Source: an uncultured bacterium
GTDB taxonomy: Bacteria; Patescibacteriota; Dojkabacteria; SC72
Length of the DNA: 29,008 nt
Assembly: GCA_938015795.1 (NCBI GenBank)
Contig: CALLXA010000080.1
Location: forward strand, 1-29,008
Direction: 5' to 3'
Shown: positions 357-29,008 of the stretch, piece after piece
Position numbering within the stretch: the first letter of the stretch is position 1
How the letters are laid out: each line of letters starts with the position of its first letter
The notes under the pieces: model-generated
Seen by the model: the letters and a program-made list of their open reading frames with translations, nothing else
Told to the model about the DNA's origin: nothing
The model's database searches: none
Translations under genes and position numbers: made by a program

Positions 357-815
357 ATGAAAATATTGGAAAGAGTGAAGGATATTAAGACGAGCAGTAT
401 TCTGCTAAACATAATTTTAGTAGTAGTCATCTCATTTGTAGGGTTGATTATTTACTGGAGCATAAGACCATACGATATTGTCCAATGGAAGATTGACCAA
501 TACCAAACCACGAAGCAAGAATATAAAGTAGGTGAAGTCTTAACCTACAGAACAGCATTTTGTAAGAGAGGAAACTACATAGCCCATCAGATGCGAAGAC
601 TAGAAGACGGAGTTGTTTATTTATTTCCAGATTTGTCATCAAGCACCACGGAGGGCTGTTTAGACTTCATCTCCACAAGCACTACCGTTCCAAATGTTCC
701 AACTGGAGAATATTTTTTTGAGATAGAGTTCATCTACAAAGTCAATCCAATCCGAGAAGTAAGATATACAATGCACAGCAATAGGTTCAAGATTGTAAAT
801 GACAATAACTTTTAA
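357..815 (+). CDS. Membrane-anchored protein with extracytoplasmic beta-rich domain (lysis cassette)
   Basis: N-terminal TM (ILLNIILVVVISFVGLIIYW), then a soluble beta-strand-rich region with two Cys; lies between the holin-like gene and the endolysin. Confidence 0.7.
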   Translation: MKILERVKDIKTSSILLNIILVVVISFVGLIIYWSIRPYDIVQWKIDQYQTTKQEYKVGEVLTYRTAFCKRGNYIAHQMRRLEDGVVYLFPDLSSSTTEGCLDFISTSTTVPNVPTGEYFFEIEFIYKVNPIREVRYTMHSNRFKIVNDNNF

Positions 816-826
816 GAGGTAAAAAA

Positions 827-1597
827 ATGGCGGAAATATATACTTCACTATTCAAAGGCAAGGTTCATATAACAACCCCGTATTCCAGTAAGCACCCTGC
901 TTTAGATATGGGGAATTACAAAACAAGAAATCCAATATACTCTCCAAACAAGCTCGGAAAAGGAAAAGTTTCCAAACAAACTACAAGTTATACATACGGA
1001 GGTGTATTATACAAAGATGCATTGACTCAATGGATTAAGTATGACAATGGTTTTGAGTCCTGCACAGTTCACGGTTCGGTTGCTGACAGAATACTAAAAG
1101 TAGGGGATTTGGTAAAAGTAGGACAGCTAGTTTACAGGACTGGAAATAAAGGTTACAGCAAAGGCGACCATCTTCACTACCAATTAAAGAAGAACGGAGT
1201 TCTGGTTGACCCTACAAAATATGTGATGAACGATATGCCCATTGAAGCCCCTACAACCCCTCCTGCACAGACGGAGTGTGAGAAACGAGTGATAGAACTT
1301 GAAGCACAGGTAGCGGGGCTTAAATCAGCTGTAGGGAGTGCAGAAGTGGTAATAAAAACTAGGGACGACTCTATTAGACTTTTAACGGAAAGAAATACCT
1401 ATTTGGAAGAAGTTACAAAAGAAACAAATAGCCAGTTCAAAGGGTTGGAGAAGTTACTAAAAGATATTCAAGACAAATGCGATAAGTTGTCCGAGGACTA
1501 CAAAGCAGTTTCAGAGGAGTTAAAAGAACTTAAAGAGGGCAGAGATACTTGGATTAACAGATTGGCAGATATATTACATAAGTTATTTACTAAATAA
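827..1597 (+). CDS. M23 family peptidase endolysin with C-terminal coiled coil
   Basis: Zn-binding motifs HxxxD (HPALD) and HxH (GYSKGDHLHYQL), GNKG loop, Pro/Thr linker, then about 100 aa heptad-rich tail. Confidence 0.9.
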   Translation: MAEIYTSLFKGKVHITTPYSSKHPALDMGNYKTRNPIYSPNKLGKGKVSKQTTSYTYGGVLYKDALTQWIKYDNGFESCTVHGSVADRILKVGDLVKVGQLVYRTGNKGYSKGDHLHYQLKKNGVLVDPTKYVMNDMPIEAPTTPPAQTECEKRVIELEAQVAGLKSAVGSAEVVIKTRDDSIRLLTERNTYLEEVTKETNSQFKGLEKLLKDIQDKCDKLSEDYKAVSEELKELKEGRDTWINRLADILHKLFTK

Positions 1598-1598
1598 T

Positions 1599-2424: not shown

Positions 2425-2433
2425 TGCTATATT
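2425..2433 (+). promoter_or_regulatory. Extended -10 promoter for the glycosyltransferase operon (possibly leaderless mRNA)
   Basis: TG-c-TATATT ends 5 nt before ATG 2439; no SD and no -20 hexamer before this gene. Confidence 0.4.
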
Positions 2434-2438: not shown

Positions 2439-3368
2439 ATGAAAGATTTTGTAATCTATCATAACTACATACCAAAAGTAGGAGGGATAGAATCAGCAGT
2501 CTATAATTTGGCAAGTGGATTGAATAAAAAAGGCTACAATGTAACGATAGTCTATACAAGTGCCGAGAGCTATGAGAGTTTATTCCACTATGCCAAAGTA
2601 GCAGATGTCGTTAGAGTTGATACCAGAGAAATATATTGTGATGTGTGTTTAATAGCAAGTAATCATTTAATCCCTGATAACATAAAGGCAGATAGATACC
2701 TACAATGGGTCCACTCCGATTATGATAAATACAATCTAAAACTAACAAATAAAGGAAAGGTGGAGTATGTCGCAGTTAGTAAACATTGTTCAGAAGTAAT
2801 TAAGAAAAGGGAGAAGATAGAGTGTAAAGTTATTTATAACCTCATAGACCAAGATTTCGGAAATGATAAAAGAAAGATTTTAAGACTTGTTACCAATTCT
2901 AGAGTATCACCAGAGAAGGGATTTGAAAGGGCTTTCAAGTTAGCAAACTCATTAAAGGAAAGTAATATACGATTCTCTTGGGTTATCTATGGCGACAATT
3001 CTCATTATCCAAAAGAATATTGGGGTTGGATAGACAAGTTCAGACCTATTGAAGAAGTCCAATGGGTAGGATACAAAAGTGATGTTTCAATCGGATTAAC
3101 CAATGCTGATTATCTAGTTCAATTATCAGATTTTGAGGGTTGCCCTCTTTCAATCCTAGAAGCATTAAAGATGGAAGTTCCCTGCCTAGTAACAAACTGG
3201 GGTGGAGTAAAGGAACTCATAACAGACGGAGTTAATGGATATATTCTTCCAATGAATATGAAAGATATAGATGTGGACAAAATTGTGGATAAGATACCAA
3301 AGTTTAAGTATAAGCCACTTTCTAATGTGGATAGCTGGATTAAGTTAATAGAAAAGGATAATGGATAA
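2439..3368 (+). CDS. GT-B fold glycosyltransferase (GT4 / Glycos_transf_1-like)
   Basis: N-terminal GGIESAVYNLA motif; SRVSPEKG; C-terminal ADYLVQLSDFEGCPLSILEALKMEVPCLVTNWGGVKELITDGVNGY signature. Confidence 0.9.
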   Translation: MKDFVIYHNYIPKVGGIESAVYNLASGLNKKGYNVTIVYTSAESYESLFHYAKVADVVRVDTREIYCDVCLIASNHLIPDNIKADRYLQWVHSDYDKYNLKLTNKGKVEYVAVSKHCSEVIKKREKIECKVIYNLIDQDFGNDKRKILRLVTNSRVSPEKGFERAFKLANSLKESNIRFSWVIYGDNSHYPKEYWGWIDKFRPIEEVQWVGYKSDVSIGLTNADYLVQLSDFEGCPLSILEALKMEVPCLVTNWGGVKELITDGVNGYILPMNMKDIDVDKIVDKIPKFKYKPLSNVDSWIKLIEKDNG

Positions 3369-4064: not shown

Positions 4065-4229
4065 ATGGTAATAATAAAAACAATAAGAACATATTTTGAT
4101 GTTGTTCTAAACAAATCAATCACATCTGGATTTGTCAATCGTGTTCCACCTGCGAGGGCGAGAAAATTGCTTTCAATGGGGTTAGCAGAGGTGTTGGAAA
4201 TAGATAAGTTAAAAAAAAGAGAACAATGA
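4065..4229 (+). CDS. 54-aa hypothetical protein
   Basis: MVIIKTIRTYFDVVLNKSITSGFVNRVPPARARKLLSMGLAEVLEIDKLKKREQ*; starts 2 nt after the upstream stop; ATGA overlap with the next gene. Confidence 0.65.
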   Translation: MVIIKTIRTYFDVVLNKSITSGFVNRVPPARARKLLSMGLAEVLEIDKLKKREQ

Positions 4230-4888
4230 AGTTTATTAAAAAAGAAACATTTTATCCCTTTCCAGTTCACGAGTGGAATCTTCCTGCGGGACATACTTGC
4301 CCGTTCGCCAAAGATTGTAAAATTATGGTCAATCGCTATAGTGGGAAGTTCAATATCATTGGAGATAAGTTCCGTTGTTATGCAGCAATCTCCGAGAGGT
4401 TTCCTGCCGTAAGAAATATGAGATGGAAGAACTACGAAGAAGTAGTAGAGCTATTAAAGAAGAAAGAGATAATACAAATACCACCACGGGCAACCCATAT
4501 TAGAATACACGGGAGTGGAGATTTTTTCAGTCAAGAATATTTTGATATGTGGTTAGAAGTTTGTAGGAGAAATCCAAAGGTAAAGTTCTGGGCATTTACA
4601 AAAAGTCTTCAATTCTGGATAAACCGACTAGACCAGATACCAGAGAACTTGACACTACAGGCAAGTAAAGGTGGATTTCAAGACAATCTAATTAAGGTGT
4701 ATAATCTAAAGTATGCAGAGGTATTTACTGATATTGGAGAAGCAATCAGGAGTGGACTTCCCATAGATACAGATGATACCTATGCTATGAGTGGGAATCA
4801 GAGTTTTGCTTTGTTGGATAATAACAAATATTCAAAGAAAGTTCCGATTCAAGAGTTAATAGATAATTTTATCAAAACTTCCAAATGA
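4226..4888 (+). CDS. Phage gp88-like (radical-SAM-related) protein
   Basis: WNLPAGHTCPFAKDC...CYA...IRIHGSGDFFSQEY...FWAFTKS pattern typical of the GP88 family; three spaced Cys. Confidence 0.7.
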   Translation: MKFIKKETFYPFPVHEWNLPAGHTCPFAKDCKIMVNRYSGKFNIIGDKFRCYAAISERFPAVRNMRWKNYEEVVELLKKKEIIQIPPRATHIRIHGSGDFFSQEYFDMWLEVCRRNPKVKFWAFTKSLQFWINRLDQIPENLTLQASKGGFQDNLIKVYNLKYAEVFTDIGEAIRSGLPIDTDDTYAMSGNQSFALLDNNKYSKKVPIQELIDNFIKTSK

Positions 4889-5191: not shown

Positions 5192-5205
5192 AGAAAGGAG
5201 TTTCA

Positions 5206-6072: not shown

Positions 6073-6103
6073 TAAGAATTAAGTTAAGTTGAGGGTAAAT
6101 AAG

Positions 6104-6331: not shown

Positions 6332-6379
6332 GAAAAGGATAAAATAGCTCTTTACATTTTATATATATTCTTATATAAT
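6332..6379 (+). promoter_or_regulatory. Near-consensus sigma70 promoter with 23-nt repeated upstream element (copy 2)
   Basis: GAAAAGGATAAAATAGCTCTTTA (6332-6354, 22/23 identical to copy 1) overlaps TTTACA (6351-6356), 17 nt, TATAAT (6374-6379). Confidence 0.75.
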
Positions 6380-6387
6380 GTTAATAT

Positions 6388-6405
6388 AGTTAAGTTAAGT
6401 TAAGT
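6388..6405 (+). repeat. Tandem (TAAGT)n pentamer run
   Basis: AGTTAAGTTAAGTTAAGT; shorter runs at 6079-6090 and 7788-7800; all lie just upstream of start codons. Confidence 0.7.
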
Positions 6406-6414
6406 AAAAAAAAG

Positions 6415-6609
6415 ATGAGAAACACAAAAAGTTTAGAGAGTATCGCAAAGGCAATAGAGGATTTGGGACAAGTTAAAAGAGATATCCTCTTAAAGGTAGG
6501 AAACATAGAGGATAACTCCAGTATAGTATTCACAAACTTAATGATTGATAAGACAAATGAATTGATTAGACTTTTACAGTATAGAGAAATGGTAGAAAGA
6601 AACAGGTAA
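6415..6609 (+). CDS. Hypothetical protein (helical)
   Basis: ORF track; follows the promoter; TAAGTT at -19. Confidence 0.7.
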   Translation: MRNTKSLESIAKAIEDLGQVKRDILLKVGNIEDNSSIVFTNLMIDKTNELIRLLQYREMVERNR

Positions 6610-6678
6610 TTGACTACTCGGAGGGTTTTAGAGATAGAACCCTCACAGTAGGAAACTACAAAATAAGTTGTTAGTCAA
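6610..6678 (+). ncRNA. Candidate structured leader RNA (three-way junction, two GNRA loops)
   Basis: P1 TTGACTA (6610-16)/TAGTCAA (6672-78); P2 GAGGGTTTTA-GAGA-TAGAACCCTC (6621-44, one GU pair); P3 GTAG-GAAA-CTAC (6648-59). Confidence 0.45.
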
Positions 6679-7581: not shown

Positions 7582-7804
7582 TGTAACAAGAAAAGTAGAT
7601 GACCCATATGCCATTTACAGGAGCTTTCTTCTTCCAGAGTGGGAGTGGCGAGTATTAAAGAAATGGCAAGTAGATGATAACAAGCCACTAGCAAGATGGT
7701 TTTGTGCAGTTAAGTCGCCCTATACCTACGGAGAGTGGGAATACGGAGATGTCTATGTATCAGAAATAAGAGAAGCAAAGTGTTATGAAGTTAAGTTAAG
7801 ATAG
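7565..7804 (+). CDS. Conserved phage hypothetical protein
   Basis: Trp-rich WEWRVLKKWQ...RWFCAVKSPYTYGEWEYGDVY; ATG 7565 preferred over GTG 7550. Confidence 0.75.
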   Translation: MKNEFNVTRKVDDPYAIYRSFLLPEWEWRVLKKWQVDDNKPLARWFCAVKSPYTYGEWEYGDVYVSEIREAKCYEVKLR

Positions 7805-8477: not shown

Positions 8478-8753
8478 ATGAACAAGTTTAACGAAACAAG
8501 AGAACAGTTAGTAAAGAAAGGCTACGGAGAGCATAGAGCCAAGTTAGGCAACGGAGTAGAAATGGTTTACACAAATCTATCTCCGATACAAAGAATTGAG
8601 AACATAGGAAAGGAAATAAGAAGCAAGGAAAGAATTGCTAAAGCAAATAAAAAGGAGCTTTCCTATGTTAAAGGTTTAGAGTTACGAAAGAAGATAGAAG
8701 AAACAATCCAAGCTATAGACAAAGAGTTTGGAAATAATTTTAGTAAAAATTGA
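8478..8753 (+). CDS. Hypothetical basic coiled-coil protein
   Basis: ATG 8478 lies 2 nt after the upstream stop, with GAGGAG upstream. Confidence 0.7.
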   Translation: MNKFNETREQLVKKGYGEHRAKLGNGVEMVYTNLSPIQRIENIGKEIRSKERIAKANKKELSYVKGLELRKKIEETIQAIDKEFGNNFSKN

Positions 8754-8754: not shown

Positions 8755-9132
8755 ATGTTAAAAATTACAAAAAACGGAATAGAGGGTTCTTACAATTTAA
8801 GTGATATGTTATACGAAGATATGATTTGGTTATTAGACCAGACAAAGAGAAAAGCAAACGAGTTTGAAAAACTGGCAGAGAAAATAGAACTAGACCAAAA
8901 CACTTGGAATTATTTTTGGAAGAAGGTTAGAGATTACAGGGCAGAAGCAGAAGTGATAGAAATTGTTATCAATGACAAGGACAAAATGGTAACACAAGAG
9001 GAGTTTGAAGTAGTTAAGCAAATATTGGGTTCACCAATAGATACAGTAAGTAACTGCTGTGGAGAGCCAGTAATCTACGGAGATATATGTTCAGACTGTA
9101 AGGAGCATTGTTCTAAAGTTTACATATTCTAA
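8755..9132 (+). CDS. Hypothetical protein with C-terminal Cys cluster (zinc ribbon-like)
   Basis: SNCCGEPVIYGDICSDCKEHC; ATG 8755 has TAATTT at -20. Confidence 0.7.
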   Translation: MLKITKNGIEGSYNLSDMLYEDMIWLLDQTKRKANEFEKLAEKIELDQNTWNYFWKKVRDYRAEAEVIEIVINDKDKMVTQEEFEVVKQILGSPIDTVSNCCGEPVIYGDICSDCKEHCSKVYIF

Positions 9133-9134
9133 AT

Positions 9135-10040
9135 ATGAAAGAAATGGTTTACAAACAAAACGGAATAGACATTTACTACTACAATTACAAAGAACCATTT
9201 ATTAAGTTCAAAGGTGGTTTTGGATTTGAAGGAGCATTAGGCTATTCCTTGGACAAAAAGAAAGTTCAATGTCATTTCTGCGGAGAGTTTTACAAATCAA
9301 TCAGAAGTTCCCATATTCAGACCTGCGAGGGTGTAAAGAGATATGAGAAGAAGAACAATGTTCTCATAGAAGACACCAACGACTACAAAGATATTGTTGG
9401 ACTCAATAGGACTTCGGCTCTCATAGGGGAAGAAACAAGATTGAAGTTAATCCAAAATGCCATTGACTGTAACAAGAAATTACAAGTAAGTAAGTGGAAT
9501 GATAAAGAACAAAAAAAGGAAAGGGGGAAAAAGCTATCAGAAAGAAACAGAAGAAGAACAGGAGAAAAAATCTCAATGGAAAAGAGAAACAAATCAGGAA
9601 CTTGCCCTGTTCAATTACTAGAAAGAATAAAAGAAGTTCATCAGGCTCTTGGTCATACTCCTACAAAAAAAGAGTTCTACAATTTCTTCAAGGGAAAGTA
9701 TCTGGGAGCAATATACCAAGTCCACGGAAGTTGGGTAGAAGCAGTTAAAAAGGCAGGATTTATTCCTGTATCTTTGTCTGATGAGCATAGGGAGTATGAA
9801 TATACAAACGAACAGTTATTACAGGCTCTACGAGAGTTCTACGAGAGGTTTGGAAGACTATCTACTTCAAGCGACCATACCAGAGGACTACTTCCAAGTT
9901 ATTGGACATACACAAACAGGTTTGGAAGTATTAACAACGCCAGAAGACAAGCAGAGCTTCCAGTTAAGTATAAGGTTGGAACATTTAAGTATATCTACGA
10001 TTACTCAAGCTGTAATAGTAGGTATCTGGTTAAGAAATAA
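9135..10040 (+). CDS. DNA-binding protein: MucR/Ros-like Zn finger plus two homing-endonuclease-associated repeats
   Basis: VQCHFCGEFYKSIRSSHIQTC; repeats LLERIKEVHQALGHTPT...HGSWVEAVKKAG and LLQALREFYERFGRLST...RFGSINNARRQA; no nuclease motif seen. Confidence 0.7.
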   Translation: MKEMVYKQNGIDIYYYNYKEPFIKFKGGFGFEGALGYSLDKKKVQCHFCGEFYKSIRSSHIQTCEGVKRYEKKNNVLIEDTNDYKDIVGLNRTSALIGEETRLKLIQNAIDCNKKLQVSKWNDKEQKKERGKKLSERNRRRTGEKISMEKRNKSGTCPVQLLERIKEVHQALGHTPTKKEFYNFFKGKYLGAIYQVHGSWVEAVKKAGFIPVSLSDEHREYEYTNEQLLQALREFYERFGRLSTSSDHTRGLLPSYWTYTNRFGSINNARRQAELPVKYKVGTFKYIYDYSSCNSRYLVKK

Positions 10041-10056
10041 GTTTAGTATTAGAAAT

Positions 10057-10431: not shown

Positions 10432-10452
10432 ATAAGTTTAGTTATATATAAG

Positions 10453-10734: not shown

Positions 10735-10735
10735 T

Positions 10736-12133: not shown

Positions 12134-12149
12134 CTTGAAACAACTGCCA

Positions 12150-13036: not shown

Positions 13037-13053
13037 GTTAATATCAAACGACT

Positions 13054-14801: not shown

Positions 14802-14807
14802 TTTACT

Positions 14808-16389: not shown

Positions 16390-16437
16390 CTCCGATTGTG
16401 ATACGATATATTGTATAACTTAAAAACATTAAAACAA

Positions 16438-17745: not shown

Positions 17746-17763
17746 GTTTAACAGAGTAGTGGT

Positions 17764-18819: not shown

Positions 18820-18901
18820 TTGACTTGGAGATTAAGATGTGAAATGATATATATATAACAACCTGCAGAGGGTTATACTGTTAAGTTTATCTAATGTCAT
18901 T

Positions 18902-19411
18902 ATGACAGAAGAAATAAAAAAGACACCAGAGGCAGAAACTCCAGAAGCCCCAGAAAAGGTGGAAGTCAAGGAGGAGAAACTTTTAACACAAGACCAGTTT
19001 AACAAGGCACTTCAAGAACGATTAGCAAAAGAAAAAGCAAAGTTCACAGAAGAAGTGAAAACTGTTAAAGAAGAAGCAGAGAGGTTAGCAAAACTTACTG
19101 CCGAAGAAAAAGAAAAAGAAGTAGCAAGAAAAAATGAGGAGGAGTTAAAAACAAAATACAAGGAAGTAGCAATAAGGGAGAATAGACTAGATGCTATTGA
19201 ATTATTTGCAGAATCCAAAGTCCCGACAGAGTTAGTTACTTATGTAATTGACGAAGACAAGGACAAGACATTAGAAAATGCCGAAGTATTTGTTAAGACT
19301 TTTAATGAGTCTGTTGCTAAATCAGTAGCAGAGCAATTAAAGGGGACTCCACCTAAAGATGTCTCTACTTCAACCGATACTGGTGTGAAGAAAGTTATTA
19401 AATCGTTTTAG
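18902..19411 (+). CDS. Capsid scaffolding protein (DUF4355-like)
   Basis: Charged helical protein, TQDQFNKALQERLAKEK, KLTAEEKE, GTPP near the C-terminus; directly before the MCP. Confidence 0.85.
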   Translation: MTEEIKKTPEAETPEAPEKVEVKEEKLLTQDQFNKALQERLAKEKAKFTEEVKTVKEEAERLAKLTAEEKEKEVARKNEEELKTKYKEVAIRENRLDAIELFAESKVPTELVTYVIDEDKDKTLENAEVFVKTFNESVAKSVAEQLKGTPPKDVSTSTDTGVKKVIKSF

Positions 19412-19436
19412 AAAATAACTTTAGTGAGAAATTAAG

Positions 19437-20273
19437 ATGGCAAAACAAGATGCATTAAGTATCTTTTTATCCGACGGAAGCACAGAGGAGAAGTTAATGG
19501 AGTCATACGCAGAAGTAGTTGATATGATTCAGAAGACAGCAGTCTCCTCTCAAATCAAGAATGTAAATCTTTCTGGCGACCCAGAGAGCGGTTCTGTTGA
19601 GGTAAGAAGATTGATGACTTCTGCAAGTCAAGCATATGGAACAGCAAGAAGTGCAGGTGGGGACAAAATCTCCAATAACGGTGTTACAATTAACCTTGAC
19701 CAAGACAAAGAAATCGTAGAAGAAGTAGAGTGGAAAGATGTCCAGTTATTTGGAATATCAGATATTCTAGCAAAGAGAATGACCAATCACGAGATGGCAA
19801 TGGTCAGAGAACTAGACACAGCTTTCTTCGCAGAAGCGGAGTCTGCAGGTTCAGAAGAAACAATTACAAGCTCAACCATAGAAGACCAGATTGAGGAGTT
19901 GATACAATCAGTAGAAACAACTTCAAATAATAATGTTGATGGTGTAGATAGAGATATGCTTGTATTAGTAGTTAAACCTGCTATTTACGGACAATTAAGG
20001 AACTATATAGATTCACTTCCAAATCCTTTAGGTGGTGGAGTTGATGCAAAGAAGTTCCACGATGTTAGAATATTCTCTAACACAAGACAGACCAAAGATG
20101 CTATTTGTATGGCAGTTGGTTCAATAGCACAACCTGTTGTTGCTCAACCATACGAAGTAAGCAGAATCCCATTATCCAATGCAGTAGCAATAGAACTTTA
20201 CTACTCATACGGAACACAGGCAGTAATGTCTGATTTGATTAAGTGGGCTACTTTAAGTGCGGTAAGTGCTTAA
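19437..20273 (+). CDS. Major capsid protein
   Basis: 278 aa after the scaffold; TINLDQDKE, LVLVVKPAIYGQL, ELYYSYGTQAV resemble the HK97 fold; ends SAVSA. Confidence 0.85.
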   Translation: MAKQDALSIFLSDGSTEEKLMESYAEVVDMIQKTAVSSQIKNVNLSGDPESGSVEVRRLMTSASQAYGTARSAGGDKISNNGVTINLDQDKEIVEEVEWKDVQLFGISDILAKRMTNHEMAMVRELDTAFFAEAESAGSEETITSSTIEDQIEELIQSVETTSNNNVDGVDRDMLVLVVKPAIYGQLRNYIDSLPNPLGGGVDAKKFHDVRIFSNTRQTKDAICMAVGSIAQPVVAQPYEVSRIPLSNAVAIELYYSYGTQAVMSDLIKWATLSAVSA

Positions 20274-20307
20274 TAGTTAGTTTGGTTAAGTTTAGATAGG
20301 AGAGGGT

Positions 20308-20772
20308 ATGGAAGATATAATTGAGAGGATAAAAGCATATGTGCTAGTTATCAATCCAAGTCTAACAGATGATGAGTTATTGAACTTTGTAATCGCAGAG
20401 GTAGTAGATAGAGCATTGGCATACACAAACCGAAAACAGTTAGTCGCAGGATATGAGAGATTTTTAGAGGGCGATTACTATGTAGGTGAATACTATGTAG
20501 ATGTAACAGGAACATATCAGCCAATATTACCAATACCACTAGAAATAGAACGGGCATTGGCAAGGGTTATTGTTTTGAGTTACAAGACTGTAAAGGACAA
20601 TGTAGCTAGTGATACTCCTGCTATCAAATCATTACAGGACAATGGTCAATCTGTAAGCTATGGTGATAATGTAGCCAGTTATTTAGCTTCAAAAGAAGAT
20701 TCGGATATATTCTCCTCTGTGAAAGGATTGCTAGATAAGTTTAGAATCCCTACGATAGTTGAAAATACCTAG
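20308..20772 (+). CDS. Head-tail adaptor (gp6/gp15-like)
   Basis: Position after MCP; IKSLQDNGQSVSY...LLDKFR pattern. Confidence 0.75.
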   Translation: MEDIIERIKAYVLVINPSLTDDELLNFVIAEVVDRALAYTNRKQLVAGYERFLEGDYYVGEYYVDVTGTYQPILPIPLEIERALARVIVLSYKTVKDNVASDTPAIKSLQDNGQSVSYGDNVASYLASKEDSDIFSSVKGLLDKFRIPTIVENT

Positions 20773-21121
20773 TAGTTTCAAAACCAAAATAGAAGAAACT
20801 TTTTACGACAAGCTCTTTAATATTTACAATAAAGAACAAACTGTTGATGATGAGGGGTGGGCTAAAGACAAATCAACCACGAAGAAGTCTTCCGTCTATG
20901 GCAATGTAAGGTTTAATAACCTAGCAGAGCTACAAGAAGAATACGGAATCGAGGAAGAAATAGACATAGCCATTACAACTAGCAGTTCGGTTGAATTAGG
21001 AGATATACTGGAATACGAGGGAAATGAATACCGAGTAATCGGCTCTATTCCCTACGATTCCCATAATTTAATATTCGCAAAGAAATGGTTATCACAGTCC
21101 TCAACCTTGACAAGTGTATAA
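20759..21121 (+). CDS. Head closure/stopper protein (gp16-like)
   Basis: Beta-rich 120 aa; ELGDILEYEGNEYRVI; neck synteny. Confidence 0.7.
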   Translation: MKIPSSFKTKIEETFYDKLFNIYNKEQTVDDEGWAKDKSTTKKSSVYGNVRFNNLAELQEEYGIEEEIDIAITTSSSVELGDILEYEGNEYRVIGSIPYDSHNLIFAKKWLSQSSTLTSV

Positions 21122-21516
21122 GGGATTTTGGGAAGCTAGAGAACCTAGATTTATACCCAATAATTAAACCTGCTACACAACTGGTTCAGAGGACAGCCAG
21201 AAGACTTGCTCCTGTTGATACTACGAATCTACGAAAGAGTATTCATATGGAAGCCAAGAAGAAAGGTAAGGATAGCTATGGAAGAATATTTACAAATGTA
21301 GAGTATGCTCCATACCAAGAGTTTGGTTATTCCCGAAAGGTAAAAGCAGGCGACAGGATAATGGTGTATGGAAGATGGGTAACAGCAAAAAAGGGATTCT
21401 CTATTGTGTATAGAGGTAAACCGTATATGCGACCTGCCCTATCCAGACACAGAGCAGAGATACAAAGAGCAGTAAGGAGTTATGTGAAGAATTATATTAA
21501 CAATGGGGGCAAATGA
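21085..21516 (+). CDS. HK97 gp10-like tail completion protein
   Basis: ARRLAPVDTTNLRKSI, NVEYAPYQEFG, KPYMRPAL. Confidence 0.85.
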   Translation: MVITVLNLDKCIRDFGKLENLDLYPIIKPATQLVQRTARRLAPVDTTNLRKSIHMEAKKKGKDSYGRIFTNVEYAPYQEFGYSRKVKAGDRIMVYGRWVTAKKGFSIVYRGKPYMRPALSRHRAEIQRAVRSYVKNYINNGGK

Positions 21517-21845
21517 TAGAACCTAAAAAGAGTGTATATACAATTTTAAGTGCTTTAGATGGAGTTAATGTCTATCAAGCAAGACCAGAGCAAGTAATTG
21601 AATATCCTTGTATAACTTTCTTTGTTAGTAACAATTCACCAACCTATGTTTTGGAAAAAGAAATAGGGTATCAAGAAATGGAAGTAACGATAGATATTTA
21701 CGCGAAGACGAGTAGTGAGAGTGGAGAGTTGTTATCCACTCTGGAACAGGCAATGATTAGTAATGGTTATCGTTTAACCTACTGTTCAGATGTTCCAAAT
21801 GATGATGCAAGTCATCTAACAACTGTATTTAATATAATAGGATAA
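21513..21845 (+). CDS. Tail terminator (gp17-like)
   Basis: EYPCITF, EVTIDIYAK, LEQAMISNGY; precedes the tail tube gene. Confidence 0.75.
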   Translation: MIEPKKSVYTILSALDGVNVYQARPEQVIEYPCITFFVSNNSPTYVLEKEIGYQEMEVTIDIYAKTSSESGELLSTLEQAMISNGYRLTYCSDVPNDDASHLTTVFNIIG

Positions 21846-21850
21846 AAACT

Positions 21851-22282
21851 ATGAGTGCTACAAAGAGTTTAGGCACAACTCTAACAAAGACCAAGAGTGG
21901 AAGTGAGCAGACAGATTTGGTTATTGCTGACTTAACCTCTATCGGAGAAGTTGGTGTTGAGTCTGATGAAATTGATGTAACTACTTTAGATACCACAGGT
22001 GGCTATAAAGAGTTCATTGGTGGATTCAAAGATGCGGGAGAAATGTCCCTAGCAGGAATCATTAAAACTGAAACTGCTATGGAGGCAATGATTGCTCTAG
22101 CAGAATCACAAGAAGTAGAGGAGTGGACTGTAGAAAGTTCAAATGGTTCTACTTGGGTATTTGACGGGTTCGTCAAGTCTTTCAAGGAATCAGAAGCTAC
22201 TGTTGATGGAGTAAGAGGGTTTACTGGAAGTATCAGAATATCTGGTGCTCCTGTATATACTGGTGCGGAAGCAAGTGCATAA
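21851..22282 (+). CDS. Major tail (tube) protein
   Basis: EIDVTTLD...KEFIGGFKDAGEMSL...WVFDGFV...FTGSIRISGAP; ends AEASA. Confidence 0.9.
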   Translation: MSATKSLGTTLTKTKSGSEQTDLVIADLTSIGEVGVESDEIDVTTLDTTGGYKEFIGGFKDAGEMSLAGIIKTETAMEAMIALAESQEVEEWTVESSNGSTWVFDGFVKSFKESEATVDGVRGFTGSIRISGAPVYTGAEASA

Positions 22283-22288
22283 GAATCA

Positions 22289-22325
22289 GGGTGGTATAAC
22301 ACCCACCCAAAGTTCTTTTATTTTT
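22289..22325 (+). terminator. Possible terminator/attenuator after the tail tube gene
   Basis: GGGTGG (22289-94) / CCACCC (22303-08) followed, after a few nt, by a T-rich tract. Confidence 0.4.
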
Positions 22326-22344
22326 AGTTTAGCAATTAAAAGAA

Positions 22345-22650
22345 ATGGAGTTAAAATATACACCACGGACAATCAACGAAATTGAGGTGGAAGAAAAAGG
22401 AAGACCAGTCCAAGATGTTTTGGCAAACTATTCAATGAGGACTATTCTCTTGTTCGTTAAAAAGGGACTAGGAGTAGATGAAACCAAAGCACTGGAAGAA
22501 ATAGAGAAGTATCTAGCAGAGGGTAAGGACACTACGGAATTATATCTTTCAATAATGGAGGCATTACAGAAAGACGGTTTTTTACCACGAAAGCTCAATC
22601 TGGAGAAAGTAAGAGCAGAGATGAGCGAAGAACTGGCAAAAGGAGTGTAA
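22345..22650 (+). CDS. Tail assembly chaperone (gpG-like)
   Basis: Between tail tube and tape measure; contains a slippery site. Confidence 0.8.
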   Translation: MELKYTPRTINEIEVEEKGRPVQDVLANYSMRTILLFVKKGLGVDETKALEEIEKYLAEGKDTTELYLSIMEALQKDGFLPRKLNLEKVRAEMSEELAKGV

Positions 22651-22970
22651 GATTTGGCAAGATATGGGAAGACGGAGAAGAATTAGCTATTAAAATAGGT
22701 TTGAATCTTACTACATATTGGGAAACCACTCCAAAGAGGTTGGAAAAGTATATTAAGGTGTATATTGAGAAAGAAAAACAAAGAGCATTAGAAATGGACT
22801 GGAATAACTATAACTTGGGAAAGTATGTAGCTTTCGCTTTCAATAGTCCTAAAAAATATCCAAGTAAACCATTTCTACAGGAGGAGAAAAAATCAGGAGT
22901 AATGACAGCAAAAGAAATGGAAGAAGTAATGAGAAGAAATACATTAACATTGGGAGGTAAAATCAAATGA
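22345..22970 (+). CDS. gpGT-like fusion chaperone (about 208 aa) made by -1 frameshift
   Basis: Post-shift sequence ...FGKIWEDGEELAIKIGLNLTTYWETTPK... matches gpT-like chaperones; the track's TTG 22701 is probably not a real start. Confidence 0.8.
22578..22584 (+). promoter_or_regulatory. Programmed -1 frameshift site T TTT TTA
   Basis: In-frame GGT TTT TTA; the -1 frame is open from 22584 for 39 codons into the 22701 ORF and on to 22970. Confidence 0.85.
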
Positions 22971-25255
22971 GTAAGATAGAATCAATAGAAGTTTTAATAC
23001 AAGCAAATGCCGACCAGTTTAGGCGAGAGGTTGCCGATGTTAGAGGGCAATTAACACAACTACAAGGTTCTGCTACTGGTATAGGCAAGGGTGTAAACAG
23101 AGATTTTACAGGCTCTATTCTCAAAGCAAATATCGCTACTCAAGTTTTAATAGGGGCGGTCAAGACAGTAGGGAGAGCCATATTCAATACAGGAGCAAAA
23201 GTTGCTAGCCTTGGAAGTCAATATACAAGATTAAAGGTTGCCACGGACACGGTTGCTCGTAATATGGGTATGACCAAAACAGAAGTGGACGACTTGAGAG
23301 CAAGTTTAGAAGATGCCAATACCTATGGTTCACAAGCGGAAAATGTTATTAAGACACTAGCCTTGTCAGGACTCGTTGATATGGCTAACGGATTAAAAGC
23401 AGTTGATGCTAGAACAGGAGAAACGGTTGAGGGAGTAAAGGCTTTGGTTCTTGGTATGAAAGACCTAGGAGCTTCAGCAGGAGTTGATTCAGCCACAGCC
23501 ATAGAAAGATTAACCAAGTTCGTAAGAACAGGAAACCAGAGTTTCGCAGACGGAATAATTGAGTTAGGTAATATGAGATATGCCTACCAAAGATATGGTG
23601 ATTCAATAGGAGTAGCAGGAGAAAAACTAACAGAACAAGCAAGGGCAACCGCAAGACTTGACCTAGTAATGGCAGAGAGTCAAAAGTCCTTCGGAGCATA
23701 TGCTAACACTATGCAAACTTCAGCAAAGGCTATGGATTCCACAAAAAATGCGATAAAGAGTATGTTTGAAAGACTTGGAAGTTATCTAGAGCCAATGTTT
23801 GCGAGTATAGCAAGGGCATTATTCCTTTTCGTAGATGGTATGAGGCAATCCTTAATCGGTTCTGCCGATTCTTTTAGAAACTGGGCTAGTAAAGTAGCAA
23901 GTTACATAATCGCAGTTGTTCGTATTGTAGGAACTTTATTATCAAGACTTCCTGTAATAGGAAAGAACTTTACAGCCTTGAGGGATTTTGCTCTTAAACC
24001 AGTAGCACAAACTATGGGAGAAGTATCAGGAGCAACGGAGGGGACAGGAGATTCAATGGACAAGACAGCCAAAAGCACAAAAGCACTAAAGAAAGAATTG
24101 CTAGGTTTAGCAAGTTTTGACGAACTTAATGTTCTTGAACAATCAGAAACATCAGACGGAGGGGGAGGAGCAGGAGCAAGTAAAGGTGCTTCAATGGGTG
24201 GTGGTATGGACTTCAAAGAAATGATGAATACAGAGGAGCTGAATAACAGTATAAACGATATTAACAAAAGGGTTGATGAGATAATAAAGAATTGGACGGA
24301 CAAGTGGAACTATGCAGTTAGCATTGTTAAACCTATTTTTGAAAGTATTTGGAAATGGATAAACGAGAAAATATGGACACCTCTCAAGACTTTTTGGACC
24401 GAAACTCTTAAACCATTACTAGACTTCTGGTGGAGTATGGTTCAAAAAGAGATAGTTCCTGCCCTAGAAAGACTAGGGGCAATGTTAAGAGAAGTTTTTG
24501 GCATAGCAGGAACACAAGGAGATGTAGTAAAGGAAATATTTAAGACAATCGCACAGATAATAGGTGTAGTCCTAGTTGGTGCGGTAACAGCAGTAATATG
24601 GATTATTGCCAGAGTAATAGATGTCTTTACAGGATTTTTCGCAATAATAAAAGCGGGTATTCAATACTCAATTAGTCAATGGAACAATCTTGTAAATAAA
24701 CTAGCAGATGTAATACTATGGGGAAGAAGTCTAAAGGATAATTTCAATCAATATATAGAAAGTATCAAGGGATTCTTCAACGGATTATTGTTATACATTA
24801 AAGGAGTCTTTACGGGCAATCTTGAAAAGGCTTGGAGTGGTGTAAAACAGATGTTCAGTTCAGTATGGAGTGGTATAACAGCTATATTCAAATCAAACAT
24901 AAATACAATAATTAAACTAATCAACGGGCTGATAGGAGGATTAAACAAAATACAAATCCCGTCAATATTTGGTTCAAAACCAGTAGGGATTAACATAGCA
25001 CCGATACCATACCTAGCACAAGGTGGAATAGTAGAAAGCCCTACACTTGCTATGCTTGGAGAGGCAGGGAAAGAGGCTGTTCTGCCACTAGATAATAATA
25101 CAGCTTGGATAACAGAACTAGCAAATAAACTAGGTAGAGGAGGTGAAAATCTAAACCTTGTTGTCAAGATAGGAGAAGACACCATATTTGAAAAAGCTAT
25201 CTCATACATAAATGATAAGAGTATGAGAACAGGAGCGACTATACTTAATATTTAA
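22967..25255 (+). CDS. Tape measure protein
   Basis: 762 aa Ala/Gly/Ile-rich helical protein; LASFDELNVL; aromatic periodicity; IPYLAQGGIV...AMLGEAGKEAVLPL. Confidence 0.95.
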   Translation: MSKIESIEVLIQANADQFRREVADVRGQLTQLQGSATGIGKGVNRDFTGSILKANIATQVLIGAVKTVGRAIFNTGAKVASLGSQYTRLKVATDTVARNMGMTKTEVDDLRASLEDANTYGSQAENVIKTLALSGLVDMANGLKAVDARTGETVEGVKALVLGMKDLGASAGVDSATAIERLTKFVRTGNQSFADGIIELGNMRYAYQRYGDSIGVAGEKLTEQARATARLDLVMAESQKSFGAYANTMQTSAKAMDSTKNAIKSMFERLGSYLEPMFASIARALFLFVDGMRQSLIGSADSFRNWASKVASYIIAVVRIVGTLLSRLPVIGKNFTALRDFALKPVAQTMGEVSGATEGTGDSMDKTAKSTKALKKELLGLASFDELNVLEQSETSDGGGGAGASKGASMGGGMDFKEMMNTEELNNSINDINKRVDEIIKNWTDKWNYAVSIVKPIFESIWKWINEKIWTPLKTFWTETLKPLLDFWWSMVQKEIVPALERLGAMLREVFGIAGTQGDVVKEIFKTIAQIIGVVLVGAVTAVIWIIARVIDVFTGFFAIIKAGIQYSISQWNNLVNKLADVILWGRSLKDNFNQYIESIKGFFNGLLLYIKGVFTGNLEKAWSGVKQMFSSVWSGITAIFKSNINTIIKLINGLIGGLNKIQIPSIFGSKPVGINIAPIPYLAQGGIVESPTLAMLGEAGKEAVLPLDNNTAWITELANKLGRGGENLNLVVKIGEDTIFEKAISYINDKSMRTGATILNI

Positions 25256-25266
25256 CCTAAAAGGAA

Positions 25267-25647
25267 ATGGCAATATCTTATTTGTGTAAAATAGAGGGAA
25301 CAGATTTAACCCCATATCTAAAGACCTATGATGTTTCCTACGAGGAGATGTGGAGCGAAGCGAATAGAAATATGTCGGGTATGTTGAAAGCAAGTTACAT
25401 AGCTACTACTCCAAAGATATTCCTAGAGTTTAGACAAATGACCAAGGCAGAAATCTCAACTATTATGGGACTATTAGATAATCATAGTTTTACAGTCGCT
25501 TGGTATGATGAAACAGACGATACCTACAAACAAGACGAGTTCTATCGTGGAGAATTAAAGGTTGGTATTCGTGATTTGGATAGTGAGATGTATAAAGAAC
25601 TTTCTGTCAATCTAATAAGTTTTGGAACATTGGAGGCAAGTGCTTAA
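25267..25647 (+). CDS. Distal tail protein (Dit-like)
   Basis: Follows TMP; NRNMSGMLKA...FTVAWYD...FYRG; ends LEASA. Confidence 0.75.
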   Translation: MAISYLCKIEGTDLTPYLKTYDVSYEEMWSEANRNMSGMLKASYIATTPKIFLEFRQMTKAEISTIMGLLDNHSFTVAWYDETDDTYKQDEFYRGELKVGIRDLDSEMYKELSVNLISFGTLEASA

Positions 25648-27854
25648 TGTATGATATTACTAACGACTTCAAAACTGCTATAAAGGGAAACTCAAGGCAG
25701 ATTAAGGCAAGAATAGTAAACGGAGATGATACCATCAGCCAAGCAGACGACCTACAAAGCATAGAGATTACTTCCGAGGGTGGATTATGTAGAACAGTAA
25801 TGCGACAAGCAAAAGGGGTTTACTTCGGGACTCATACTATGTTAGGCAATACAGTATTTCTAGAAATGGGGGTAGTTCTTCCAGATACTTCTGTAGAATA
25901 TATCAATTACGGAGGCTTCAAAGTTACAGAGGTTACAGAAGACATAGGAGGGAAAATCTATACAGCAAAAATGTATGACCGAATGTATGAAGCACTTCAA
26001 CCATATGCTCTTACTCCTACATACCCTATAACAGTATTACAATTACTTCAAGCAATATGCACGGAATTGGGTTGGACACTTGCTACAACGACATTTGCTA
26101 ATAGTTCAATATCATTAACAGCCGAGTTGTTTACGGAATCACAAATGACATATAGGGATATTCTCAATATGATAGCAGAGGCTTCAGGAACAATTATGTT
26201 TTTCAATAAAGATGATGAGTTAGAGTTGAAAACGATAAGTGCTTCTGTTTTAGAAACTCTTAATCCATCAGAGTTATTAAACCTAAAGTTAGAACCAATT
26301 TACGGAGAACTAAACTCTCTAGTATTAAGCAGACAACCTCAAGAGGACAATGTAGTAGAAAAAGATGATGAAAGTATAGCTATTTATGGGCTTAATGAGT
26401 TTAAGATTGTAAATAATTATATTCTGGATTCTGACAGAGCTACATACATAACACCAATATTCACAGTATTAAACGGAATAAAGTATTATCCTTTCAAAGC
26501 AGATACAATAGGACTTGGGTATTACGAGGTTGGAGATAGAATAAAAGTCAAGGACTTGGGAGCAAACGAATACGAAGTCCTAGTAATGAATATATCTCTT
26601 AAAATATCTGGAGGATTAAGCGAGGTTTTAGAGTGTAAGATACCAGAAAAAACTTCAACCAATTATGACTATGCAGGAATAATAGGAAGAACAATTAAAC
26701 AAACGGAAATCAAAGTAGATAAACAGCAGGGAGAAATAGCAATATTATCGGAAGAAGTAGGAAATGCTTTAGTAGTTCCAAGACAGCCAGAGCCACCAGA
26801 AAGCCCAGATACAAACGATCTATGGCTAGATACTGACGACAATATCATTTACATTTATGATGGTGCTACTTGGCAACCGACTTCAATATCTCCAGACACC
26901 CTAGATGGATATTACACAAAAGAGCAGACAGAAGCAGAGATAAGTTTAACAGCAGACGAGATAAACCTATCCGTTGCTTCTACACAGGAAACTGCTTCAA
27001 CTGCACAAGCTCTAGCAGAAGAAAACAGCACGGACATTGAGTCCGTTCAGAGCAATATAACAGCCCTACAAATAGAAGTAGATGGACTAGATGTAAAAGT
27101 AGAAGGTATCGGTGGAACAAACCTATTAAAAAACAGTTCAGGACTCAAAGGAAGCATAGAGGAGTGGCAAGAGTTTGATGAGAACGGAGATTTACTAGAT
27201 GCCGATAATGATGGGACAGTAGTCCAAACGACTGATACAGAAGAAAATACCGAGAGTGGAGCAGGAATACAAATAGACGAACAATTTATAGTCCAAACGA
27301 TACCTACAATCATAGGAGGCTCTTACACTTTCTACTGTAGGTTTAAGAAGTTAAACGATTTGGATTTAACAATATCAGGAGTAGCCGAAATGATTCCTAT
27401 TACAGCAGGAGAATATGTTGATGAAACTTGGGCTGTATTCAAGACCACATTTATAGCAACGGATTCTACGACTACAATCAAGATAAGTAATACAGCAAGT
27501 GGAGTGGGTAGTTCTGGTTTACTTGCCGATATGGTTTGTAAGCTAGGAGAAGTAAATGGTTGGGTTCAAGCTCCAAATGAGGTTTACGGAAGAAACTTCA
27601 AGTTTGACAAGGACGGATTTTCAGTAACCTCTCTAACAGACGAGTTCAAAGCAGTTCTAGACAATATTAAGTTAGGCATATACGATACAAGTAGTGGAGT
27701 TGATAAAATAATGGCTCTATTCAGTAAAGATGCAGGACTAATAACAAAGCTAGTGGCACAAGACGAGTTTGTTCTCCAGAGGTATCAGAATAGTGCAAAA
27801 GCAGTAAGGTTCATACCTACTGCGACAGGCTGTATGATTACGGTAAACAACTAA
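25647..27854 (+). CDS. Tal/baseplate hub protein with coiled-coil and carbohydrate-binding-like extension
   Basis: Hub-like N-terminus (GLGYYEVGDRI), PEPPESPDTNDLWLDT linker, coiled coil, GGTNLLKNS start of a beta-sandwich module. Confidence 0.8.
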   Translation: MYDITNDFKTAIKGNSRQIKARIVNGDDTISQADDLQSIEITSEGGLCRTVMRQAKGVYFGTHTMLGNTVFLEMGVVLPDTSVEYINYGGFKVTEVTEDIGGKIYTAKMYDRMYEALQPYALTPTYPITVLQLLQAICTELGWTLATTTFANSSISLTAELFTESQMTYRDILNMIAEASGTIMFFNKDDELELKTISASVLETLNPSELLNLKLEPIYGELNSLVLSRQPQEDNVVEKDDESIAIYGLNEFKIVNNYILDSDRATYITPIFTVLNGIKYYPFKADTIGLGYYEVGDRIKVKDLGANEYEVLVMNISLKISGGLSEVLECKIPEKTSTNYDYAGIIGRTIKQTEIKVDKQQGEIAILSEEVGNALVVPRQPEPPESPDTNDLWLDTDDNIIYIYDGATWQPTSISPDTLDGYYTKEQTEAEISLTADEINLSVASTQETASTAQALAEENSTDIESVQSNITALQIEVDGLDVKVEGIGGTNLLKNSSGLKGSIEEWQEFDENGDLLDADNDGTVVQTTDTEENTESGAGIQIDEQFIVQTIPTIIGGSYTFYCRFKKLNDLDLTISGVAEMIPITAGEYVDETWAVFKTTFIATDSTTTIKISNTASGVGSSGLLADMVCKLGEVNGWVQAPNEVYGRNFKFDKDGFSVTSLTDEFKAVLDNIKLGIYDTSSGVDKIMALFSKDAGLITKLVAQDEFVLQRYQNSAKAVRFIPTATGCMITVNN

Positions 27855-27871
27855 TTTAGAGTAAAAACATA

Positions 27872-29008
27872 ATGTCATTAAGTGGAACAATAAGTGGTAG
27901 TTTTACAGGGGTAAGCACTAGTAATGCTAGACCTAAAATAAACTGGACAGCGACACAAAACATAGCAGGTAACTACTCTGATATTACAGCAACCCTAGTT
28001 TATTACAGATACGGAAGTTATTATGCCTACAATGGTTCTCACTCTGTTAGTTTGTCTATCAATGCGAATAACAATACTGGAAACTATGCATTTGATTTAA
28101 GAGGCACAGCACCTCTATCCGATACAATACGAAGTAGGACAGTCCGAGTTTACCATAATGCAGACGGAACAAAGTCCTGCAATATATCTTTCTCTTGTGA
28201 TACAGATACAAGTTTTGGCACAGGTAGTGCAAGTGCGACAGTTACATTAGACACCATACCTCGTGCAGCTACAATAACAAGCACCCTAGCCCATACCATA
28301 GGAGGCAACCTTGCCTATACATTAACCAATCTAGGGAGTTTCTATGTAAAATTAGTCCTACTCGTTTGGAACGGAACAGAATATGTAGAAGTCATTAGTT
28401 CAGAAAGAGGGACAGGGACAAGTGGTGAAATAGAGCTAGGAGCTACGGAAAACAATATTATGTATGAAGCAATGCCAAATGTAACGAGCAGAGCAGGAAT
28501 ATTAAGAGCCTATACCTATTCGGATAGTGGATATACAACTCAAGTAGGAAGTTACCAAGACAAAGCAGGAACGATATCAATAAATCAAGCTACTAACAAG
28601 CCTACATTTACTACATTTACAGTTGGAAACCTAGACAAGACAATAGCAAATACCGATAAGTATTCAAATGTTCTAGTAAGCAGTTCAACTTCAACCCTAC
28701 TAGGTGCAGATACTAAAATGATTAAGGGATATTCAAAGTTAAGAGCTGTCATTACAAGTGCAAACAAAATGGTGGCTCTCAATTATGCGACATCAGTTAA
28801 GTATAGGTTCATAGTAGGAAGTGCATACAAGGAAGAAAACTATTCGGCAGATTCTACTGTCAATCTAGATGTGGACAATGCCACTACGAATTCGGTATCA
28901 GTAACAGCATACGATTCCAGAAGTCTAACAACCCTAGTCGCAGATGCTAGTTCCATCACAAACAATGCGAACTATGTTCCTGTATCGCTTTGGGGATTAA
29001 CATTAACC
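27872..29008 (+). CDS. Siphovirus DUF859-like tail/baseplate protein (3'-truncated)
   Basis: Open 379 codons to the window end: NWTATQNIAGNYSDIT...VYHNADGTKS...VTLDTIPRA; absent from the track because it has no stop. Confidence 0.8.
   Translation, partial: MSLSGTISGSFTGVSTSNARPKINWTATQNIAGNYSDITATLVYYRYGSYYAYNGSHSVSLSINANNNTGNYAFDLRGTAPLSDTIRSRTVRVYHNADGTKSCNISFSCDTDTSFGTGSASATVTLDTIPRAATITSTLAHTIGGNLAYTLTNLGSFYVKLVLLVWNGTEYVEVISSERGTGTSGEIELGATENNIMYEAMPNVTSRAGILRAYTYSDSGYTTQVGSYQDKAGTISINQATNKPTFTTFTVGNLDKTIANTDKYSNVLVSSSTSTLLGADTKMIKGYSKLRAVITSANKMVALNYATSVKYRFIVGSAYKEENYSADSTVNLDVDNATTNSVSVTAYDSRSLTTLVADASSITNNANYVPVSLWGLTLT

Follow-up and report, generated by a model that had tools for sequence, protein, structure and literature searches.

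The phage contig and its TAANTT boxes

The window analysed here is a 29,008-nt stretch of DNA that makes up the entire contig C80 of a 132-contig, 746,620-bp assembly (31% GC, estimated completeness 92%) of Candidatus Dojkabacteria (WS6), a lineage of the candidate phyla radiation (CPR), in a family with genomes of 0.6-0.9 Mb. Its own GC content is 36%, all of its genes are carried on the plus strand, and matches to PHROG families revealed the gene layout of a siphovirus, including glycosyltransferase genes in an operon that contains the ATG at 2439, a replication initiation protein gene (start 5206), the major tail gene (start 21851), and the tape measure gene (start 22967). No tRNA genes were found in the window. 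RpoC identifies the assembly as bacterial. An alternative genetic code was set aside, code 11 already giving 76% coding sequence in open reading frames (ORFs) of at least 150 amino acids (aa). The element under study, hereafter the box, is a TAANTT hexamer that recurs about 20 nt upstream of many of the phage's start codons.

A sequence-only reading of the window had listed 24 pairs of a TAA(G/C/T)TT hexamer and a downstream ATG, and had put the chance expectation for TAAGTT well below one, against 14 observed. All 24 pairs were found at the offsets given for them (counted from the first base of the box to the start codon), and two sites were added, TAAGTT at 1680-1685 (24 nt to ATG 1704) and at 20736-20741 (23 nt to TTG 20759). 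For a choice of starts independent of the motif, every plus-strand ORF of at least 60 aa was taken to begin at its first ATG (n = 46). TAAGTT lay 19-21 nt upstream of 13 of these starts, compared to a mean of 0.11 in shuffled upstream regions, and 13 such starts were reached in none of 2000 shuffles. TAA[GCT]TT preceded 19 of the same 46 starts at this distance (shuffled mean 0.36), with 3, 9, and 7 boxes at offsets of 19, 20, and 21 nt, respectively, and a few more at 22-24 nt. Among 473 other ATGs, TAA[GCT]TT occurred at 19-21 nt in six cases and TAAGTT in two, and none of the 18 minus-strand ORFs of the window had TAANTT at that distance. The proposed positional enrichment was thus borne out against both shuffled controls and other ATGs. 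In all, TAANTT at 19-24 nt serves 26 window starts, about half of the phage's genes, with G, C, and T as the fourth base in 16, 5, and 5 of them, and with 14 nt (13-16) between the end of the box and the ATG. The plus strand carries 32 copies of TAAGTT, 17 of which lie 19-24 nt upstream of the initial ATG or TTG of an ORF. Since three of the 17 are upstream, overlapping copies, 14 starts are served.

The boxes are all on the plus strand. The first, TAACTT at 806-811, lies 21 nt from ATG 827 of a peptidase/endolysin-like gene and reads TAACTTT, as does the TAACTT at 19416-19421, 21 nt from ATG 19437 of the major head protein gene. TAAGTT is found at 4205-4210 (21 nt to ATG 4226), 6664-6669 (20 nt to ATG 6684), 7792-7797 (20 nt to ATG 7812), and 10433-10438 (20 nt to ATG 10453), and TAACTT at 10882-10887 (20 nt to ATG 10902). 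TAATTT at 11892-11897, 20 nt from ATG 11912, is accompanied by TAAGTT at 11880, 23 nt from ATG 11903. Among the structural genes, the portal gene (ATG 16438) is preceded at 22 nt by TAACTT (16416-16421), the scaffolding protein gene (ATG 18902) at 20 nt by TAAGTT (18882-18887), the head-tail adaptor gene (ATG 20308) at 21 nt by TAAGTT (20287-20292), and the Neck1/tail completion gene (ATG 21085) at 21 nt by TAATTT (21064-21069).

Other boxes lie inside upstream coding sequence: TAAGTT at 3341-3346 (20 nt to ATG 3361) within the end of gene 2439-3368, TAATTT at 4864-4869 (21 nt to ATG 4885) within the end of gene 4226-4888, TAAGTT at 14601-14606 (21 nt to ATG 14622) within gene 13775-14635, and TAAGTT at 15155-15160, 20 nt from ATG 15175 of the terminase large subunit gene, within the preceding ORF. 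At six of the 26 sites, the TAA of the box is itself the stop codon of the preceding gene, as in TAAGTT at 10038-10043 (19 nt to ATG 10057; stop of gene 9135-10040), TAACTT at 12131-12136 (19 nt to ATG 12150; stop of gene 11903-12133), TAAGTT at 13034-13039 (20 nt to ATG 13054 of a ParB-like gene; stop of gene 12728-13036), TAAGTT at 17743-17748 (21 nt to ATG 17764 of a minor head protein gene; stop of the portal gene), and TAATTT at 27852-27857 (20 nt to ATG 27872 of a tail protein gene; stop of gene 25647-27854).

Two small genes, with ATGs at 6104 and 6415, have a doubled box. The first is preceded by two overlapping copies of TAAGTT (6080 and 6085, together 6080-6090), 24 and 19 nt from the ATG, and the second by a block at 6379-6401 in which an extended -10-like sequence, TGTTAATAT (6379-6387), is followed by TAAGTT at 6391 and 6396, again at 24 and 19 nt. 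At 6080-6096 and 6391-6407, tandem repeats of a pentamer, TTAAGTTAAGTT, generate two or three overlapping copies of TAAGTT and stop codons in all three frames. Each repeat leader lies downstream of a -10-like box and upstream of its small gene, and the two leaders resemble duplicates of one another.

The box also bears on the choice of start codons. The longest-ORF rule places starts upstream of the box-supported ATG in the pairs 8728/8755, 9781/10057, 12126/12150, 16411/16438, and 14607/14622, and long overlaps with the preceding genes vanish when the box-supported starts are used. TAATTT at 8735-8740, 20 nt from ATG 8755, favours that start over the TTG at 8728. Used in this way, the box corrects the annotated starts of genes of Dojkabacteria and of the phages of these bacteria. 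For the window, it favours 8755 rather than 8728, 10057 rather than 9781, 12150 rather than 12126, and 16438 rather than 16411.

Other phage genes have a conventional Shine-Dalgarno (SD) sequence, at a normal spacing of 6-8 nt. GGAGG at 2054-2058 precedes GTG 2065, with no box at -20; AAGGAG at 5195-5200 and GGGAGG at 22952-22957 precede ATG 5206 of the replication initiation protein gene and ATG 22967 of the tape measure gene, respectively, both without a box; and GGAGG at 25632-25636 precedes ATG 25647 of a Dit-like tail protein gene, with a TAAGTT that lies out of register at -31. The earlier statement that the clear-SD genes at 2065, 5206, 8137, 8478, and 25647 lack a box at -20 proved correct. 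The box itself does not resemble an SD sequence: a core of the GGAG type is lacking, the surrounding sequence is depleted in G, and the distance to the start codon is 13-16 nt instead of about 5-10 nt. For the window by itself, the mutual exclusion of box and SD did not reach significance (odds ratio 0.33, p = 0.18); it became significant when 16 related phage loci, which are not fully independent of one another, were added (odds ratio 0.25, p = 3e-5).

The box in the host lineage and in related phages

The remaining 131 contigs of the assembly, from which 421 genes were taken by a simple first-ATG ORF rule, carry the same box at the same distance. Upstream of these host genes, GGAG is almost absent, G+C is low at -21 to -15, T reaches a frequency of 0.56 at -15, and A is the most frequent base at -8 (0.51). 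TAATTT and TAAATT occur 31 and 26 times, respectively, at -21 to -19, where about 2 would be expected. Scans of about 200 kb each of a genome of the same family (G001) and of a genome of the same order with 45% GC (G015) revealed the same peak and no SD signal. Taken over the host contigs and these two relatives, TAANTT at -22 to -19 is found in 13-22% of genes, with almost no SD signal. All four bases at the free position are enriched, by 11-17 fold, while substitution of T1, or of T5/T6, largely abolishes the enrichment; TAATTA, in which UAAUU is kept and T6 is lost, is likewise enriched. The hexamer described at first as TAA(G/C/T)TT is better written TAANTT; the fourth base is mostly A or T in host genes, and G is a peculiarity of this phage. 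The suggestion that the signal belongs to the host lineage was upheld by its presence, at the same distance, both in non-phage contigs and in the genomes of related Dojkabacteria.

No TAANTT peak at -20 was found in eight sampled CPR genomes outside the Dojkabacteria (0-5% of genes). Counts of the bare pattern over whole genomes (TAANTT-N14-ATG, and with N{13,15}; 61 and 151 genomes) were uninformative, coding background swamping the signal: the window's assembly (G000) gave 139 against 106, and 302 against 321. Within the Dojkabacteria, the families of G027, G030, and G164 show no sharp TAANTT peak, and other AT-rich hexamers are enriched at -24 to -17, such as ATTTAT in G027 (14 compared to 2.3) and TTTTTA and TTTATT in G030. 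The -20 region of these families may hold family-specific variants of the signal.

A search of IMG/VR with the portal protein yielded 80 loci. In sixteen of these (at least 9 kb, portal identity 54-71%), 19-67% of the ORFs are preceded by the box at 19-21 nt, which amounts to 3-17 boxes per locus; SD sites are few in these loci, and the fourth base of the box is mostly T or A. The remaining portal loci (identity 31-58%) have 0-2 boxes each, and among such box-poor loci SD sequences precede 50-87% of ORFs in those of low GC and 23-42% in a group of about 50% GC. Phages with homologous portals, at about 55% identity, therefore divide into TAANTT users and SD users with hardly any intermediate, a split which indicates that the box follows the expression code of the host rather than phage ancestry. 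A change of host group thus seems to bring a complete change of the gene-start code. The box supports the view that this phage infects Dojkabacteria or close kin, and offers a host marker that needs only sequence: here it sets the 16 phage contigs that use it apart from the portal homologues that use SD sequences.

A promoter element or a signal on the mRNA

The sequence-only reading had offered two explanations of the hexamer, a non-SD translation-initiation signal of the host lineage or a TAnnnT -10 element that gives each gene a leader of roughly 8 nt. In its wider form, the second would make the box a DNA-level, -10-like promoter element, perhaps for an alternative sigma factor or akin to the -7 element of Bacteroidetes (TAnnTTTG), with transcription beginning about 7 nt downstream of the box and near-leaderless translation. 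TAANTT is compatible with TAnnnT, the A peak at -8 of host genes could mark transcript starts, an 8-nt leader would also account for the exclusion of SD sequences, and leaderless expression, by all appearances common in the lineage, implies that initiation dependent on the 5' end exists there. The promoters of the lineage can be recognized independently, since an extended -10 element, TGnTA(T/A)AAT, precedes most of the assembly's 28 tRNA genes, only two of which have TAANTT upstream. The box does not share this sigma-70-type consensus. At host protein genes, TGnTA(T/A)AAT peaks at -12/-11, with its TG at -15/-14, a signature predicted to be that of leaderless mRNAs and found in about 10% of host genes (G000, G001, and G015). 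A -12/-11 peak of this leaderless type was also seen in several other CPR genomes (G080, G112, and G093). TATAAT occurs 51 times at -14 to -10, and is not enriched at -22 to -19 (10 compared to a background of 6.4); conversely, TAACTT and TAAGTT occur 14 and 10 times at -22 to -19 and not once at -14 to -10, and TAANTT as a whole shows no enrichment at -12. The second gene-start class of the host lineage is represented in the phage by TGCTATATT (2425-2433, plus strand), an extended -10 that ends 5 nt before ATG 2439 of the glycosyltransferase operon, which on its sequence is a start of the leaderless type.

The surroundings of the box also differ from those of a promoter. Neither a -35 element nor a TG adjoins it, and nothing is conserved 15-45 nt upstream of it. 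Bacteroidetes promoters have TTTG at positions 5-8 and a -33 element, whereas position 8 is here A at a frequency of 0.57 and G at 0.05. The box is commonest where a promoter is least required, at 42% of genes that follow a same-strand gap of 6-30 nt, and falls to 17% at divergent or far-spaced genes, where promoters are obligatory, and to 7% at overlapping genes. Box-like TAAATT or TAATTA precedes internal genes of the ribosomal protein operon, and in the phage the box precedes six consecutive head genes, and nearly all genes of the head module. In thirteen box genes, there is also a separate extended -10, which lies 15-50 nt farther upstream than the box and has its first base 37-70 nt from the ATG. 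In these genes, and at 6379-6415 in the window, the box consequently falls within the predicted 5'-untranslated region (UTR). At 6379-6415, promoter and box would be separate elements, with the box at the 5' end of the transcript, if transcription begins at the usual distance from TGTTAATAT. A promoter reading would further require that the choice of transcription start site and the length of the leader both be fixed, to give a lock of 19-21 nt. The split between -12 and -20, the lack of a -35 element or TG, the bias towards operon-internal genes, and the separate upstream promoters together assign the box to the mRNA, where it takes the position of a ribosome-binding site. Hence the suggestion of a TAnnnT element with an 8-nt leader is disfavoured, a -10 role for the box being unlikely as judged from these patterns, and the promoter explanation in its wider form is given a low probability.

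Signals on the RNA need not act in translation, and the box might instead be a site at which an endoribonuclease cleaves polycistronic mRNAs to leave leaders of about 18 nt, a site for a global RNA-binding regulator, or an unstructured, AU-rich stretch with many stop codons that insulates adjacent reading frames. Its AU-rich composition, the opening TAA, the coincidence with upstream stop codons at the six window sites, and the stops in all three frames in the pentamer repeats at 6080 and 6391 are in keeping with such roles. An unstructured stretch, however, would not need five fixed positions, and no lineage-specific nuclease or regulator was identified. Among host TAA stops, only 48 of 405 (12%) are of the TAANTT form, compared to 9.4% genome-wide, so that the stop role is incidental, and the distance that is locked (plus or minus 1 nt) is the one from the box to the downstream ATG, not to the upstream stop. 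We consider these other RNA roles very unlikely. The simpler notion that the TAA is merely the stop codon of the upstream gene was rejected on the same counts.

The explanation that we favour, with somewhat better than even confidence, is that the box is an RNA-level, SD-independent signal that would act in the initiation of translation. The first of the two earlier suggestions therefore fared better than the second: its assignment to the host lineage stands, and its translational part is favoured by exclusion and by context. In this model, UAANUU would lie on the mRNA at -20 to -15 of the AUG, separated from it by a 14-nt spacer that is rich in A and poor in G and C. It would fall either in a 5'-UTR or among the final codons of the preceding gene, where the 30S footprint has its edge. 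There it would recruit or position the ribosome, in the slot held elsewhere by the SD sequence. It would be the main start signal for leadered genes in one branch of the Dojkabacteria, with genomes of 0.6-1 Mb, and in the phages of that branch, the phage having adopted the host code with G at the free position. Several points weigh against this explanation. T1, A2, and T6 of the box coincide with the positions at which a -10 hexamer is most strongly conserved, and the A peak at -8 of host genes falls where transcription would start from a promoter at the position of the box. Gene starts were called by a crude ORF rule, which makes the class frequencies approximate; the kin genomes are not independent, so that a lineage-wide pattern amounts to one evolutionary observation; and what reads the box can be named only as a candidate.

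Candidate readers of the box and comparison with known systems

The reader would probably be a ribosomal protein or an initiation component. The earlier reading had pointed to the 16S rRNA anti-SD, bS1, and bS21 as the places to look. No 16S rRNA gene was found in the window's own assembly, and those of eight relatives (same family or order) were therefore used. They end in GAAUUACCUCCUUU, in which the anti-SD CCUCC is intact and GAAUUA stands in place of GGAUCA just upstream of the anti-SD core. Both proteins are encoded in the assembly, bS1 with four S1 domains in a single 440-aa frame on contig C122. CCUCC was absent from the 16S end of one sampled CPR genome (G102).

The altered tail raises the possibility that the box is read by base-pairing with AAUUA (E. 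coli 1530-1534), which would act as a shifted, second anti-SD. AAUUA, which replaces GAUCA, is the complement of UAAUU, the part of the box that is kept in the enriched variant TAATTA. In an alignment of 26 CPR 16S sequences, AATTA was found in 8 of 8 Dojkabacteria and 0 of 18 other CPR, with the 3' tail as its sole conserved place, and the exact 29-mer of the relatives' 16S 3' end occurs in 38 public records, nearly all titled Dojkabacteria or WS6. The class Dojkabacteria itself contains four tail variants, GAATTA, GGATTA, GGATCA, and GAATCA, and more than one of them occurs within each of its families f8, f11, and f18. Across 22 genomes, with few genes counted per genome, the share of genes with a box at -22 to -19 was highest, at 13-24%, in the five genomes with a GAATTA tail (G000, G001, G015, G023, and G052), compared to 3-15% in five with GGATTA, 3-6% in four Dojkabacteria with GGATCA or GAATCA, and 0-5% in the eight CPR genomes from outside the Dojkabacteria (the tail being GGATCA or GAATCA in seven and unread in one). 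This association is suggestive, and is confounded by phylogeny. A precedent for pairing at such a distance is provided by RBS2 of tobacco psbA, a ribosome-binding site (RBS) at -22 that is described as complementary to the 3' end of 16S rRNA (PMC3555230).

The energetics and geometry of this pairing are unfavourable. The predicted duplex with the native tail is worth -1.7 kcal/mol for UAAUUU and -0.8 kcal/mol for UAAAUU and UAAGUU, and none forms with UAACUU, as against -12 to -16 kcal/mol at the true SD sites of this phage. A fourth position that is free, and is G in this phage, counts against pairing, as does the lack of a G-rich extension upstream of the box towards the CCUCC core. Established knowledge of SD pairing fixes the spacing that contact with 1530-1534 would impose: given the normal 6-8 nt spacing of the phage's SD genes, partners of these nucleotides are expected at about -7 to -2, and not at -20 to -15. 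Genomes with other tails show no TGATC or TAATC peak, and in one with a GGATTA tail (G043), 5 of 34 genes nonetheless carry the box. Reading of the box by the 16S tail is thus improbable. We favour a protein reader, located where the mRNA leaves the 30S subunit, as more likely than pairing with AAUUA, given the five fixed positions, the free fourth one, and the negligible energies of pairing. One candidate is the four-domain bS1: the SD-poor genome, the AU-rich element upstream of starts, and the presence of bS1 are the features of an AU-rich, bS1-type signal.

Among described systems, the box is closest to the non-SD, AU-rich signals that GeneMarkS-2 assigns to "group B" in SD-poor lineages such as Bacteroidetes (bioRxiv 10.1101/193490). 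With these, and with the S1-dependent AU-rich enhancers of E. coli, it shares an SD-poor setting with an intact anti-SD, AU-richness, an A-rich spacer, and bS1. It differs from group B signals in being a hexamer with five fixed positions, in its lock at 19-21 nt, in lying further upstream, and in its confinement to part of one CPR class. The leaderless genes of "group C", with a -10 next to the ATG, are known from Actinobacteria and Deinococcus. The box resembles their -10 as a position-locked TA...T hexamer in an SD-poor genome, and the host has a true group C class as well. Group C hexamers end 5-8 nt before the start, whereas the box ends at -15, 8 nt further upstream, with a consensus of A3 and T5, no TG, and an operon-internal distribution, which on sequence grounds makes box and leaderless -10 separate classes in the same genomes.

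The epsilon sequence of the phage T7 gene 10 leader, UUAACUUUA, is a translation enhancer (PMC9590205). The T7 record has TAACTT 24 nt before the ATG, within TTAACTTTA, and five of the window boxes are TAACTT, including the two at 806 and 19416 that read TAACTTT. Epsilon belongs to a single leader, lies 4 nt further from the AUG, and acts with a strong SD 8 nt downstream, whereas only the C variant of the box overlaps with it and no SD follows the box. The idea that epsilon pairs with rRNA was later questioned, and its resemblance to the box may be due to chance. In the 5'-UTR of tobacco chloroplast psbA, an AU box, UAAAUAAA, lies between RBS1 at -9 and RBS2 at -22, and contacts with the 16S 3' end and with trans-factors have been proposed (PMC3555230). 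In both systems, a box rich in A and U falls between about -20 and -14, and there is no reliance on a classical SD, but psbA is one gene with a three-part element, whereas the box is genome-wide and single, with no RBS1-like partner. In the literature on SD sequences and ribosome-binding sites in Patescibacteria, CPR, and Dojkabacteria, no description of a TAANTT box was found apart from a "TAA" label, the RBS motif that Prodigal gave to 353 of 946 ORFs of a Roizmanbacteria (CPR) genome (PMC6509639). That motif comes from a genome of a different CPR class and is a gene-finder label without consensus, spacing, or interpretation.

A bolder form of the proposal, which we regard as rather unlikely, is that mRNA and the 30S subunit acquired, in this Dojkabacteria branch, a further sequence-specific code for docking, in which UAANUU at -20 is read by a dedicated ribosomal site, largely replacing the SD, and which its phages must adopt. 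Such a docking site may have co-evolved with the change of the tail from GGAUCA to GAAUUA, or may itself be a lineage-specific feature of bS1 or of a platform protein. If the translational role of the box is true, it would constitute a compact, position-locked alternative to the SD in a major uncultured group, would make SD-independent initiation in CPR testable with defined six-base mutants, and would supply a design rule for expression in these organisms once they are culturable.

Relatives of the phage were also encountered in a metagenome. A sludge run labelled "RNA-Seq", probably DNA, contained only fragments of a relative at 90-95% identity and no usable molecule ends. In a comparison with 9009-29008 of the window, contigs of this run matched parts of the phage at 90-95% identity, such as 19651-20231 and 20681-21126, which indicates that close relatives of the phage circulate in sludge.

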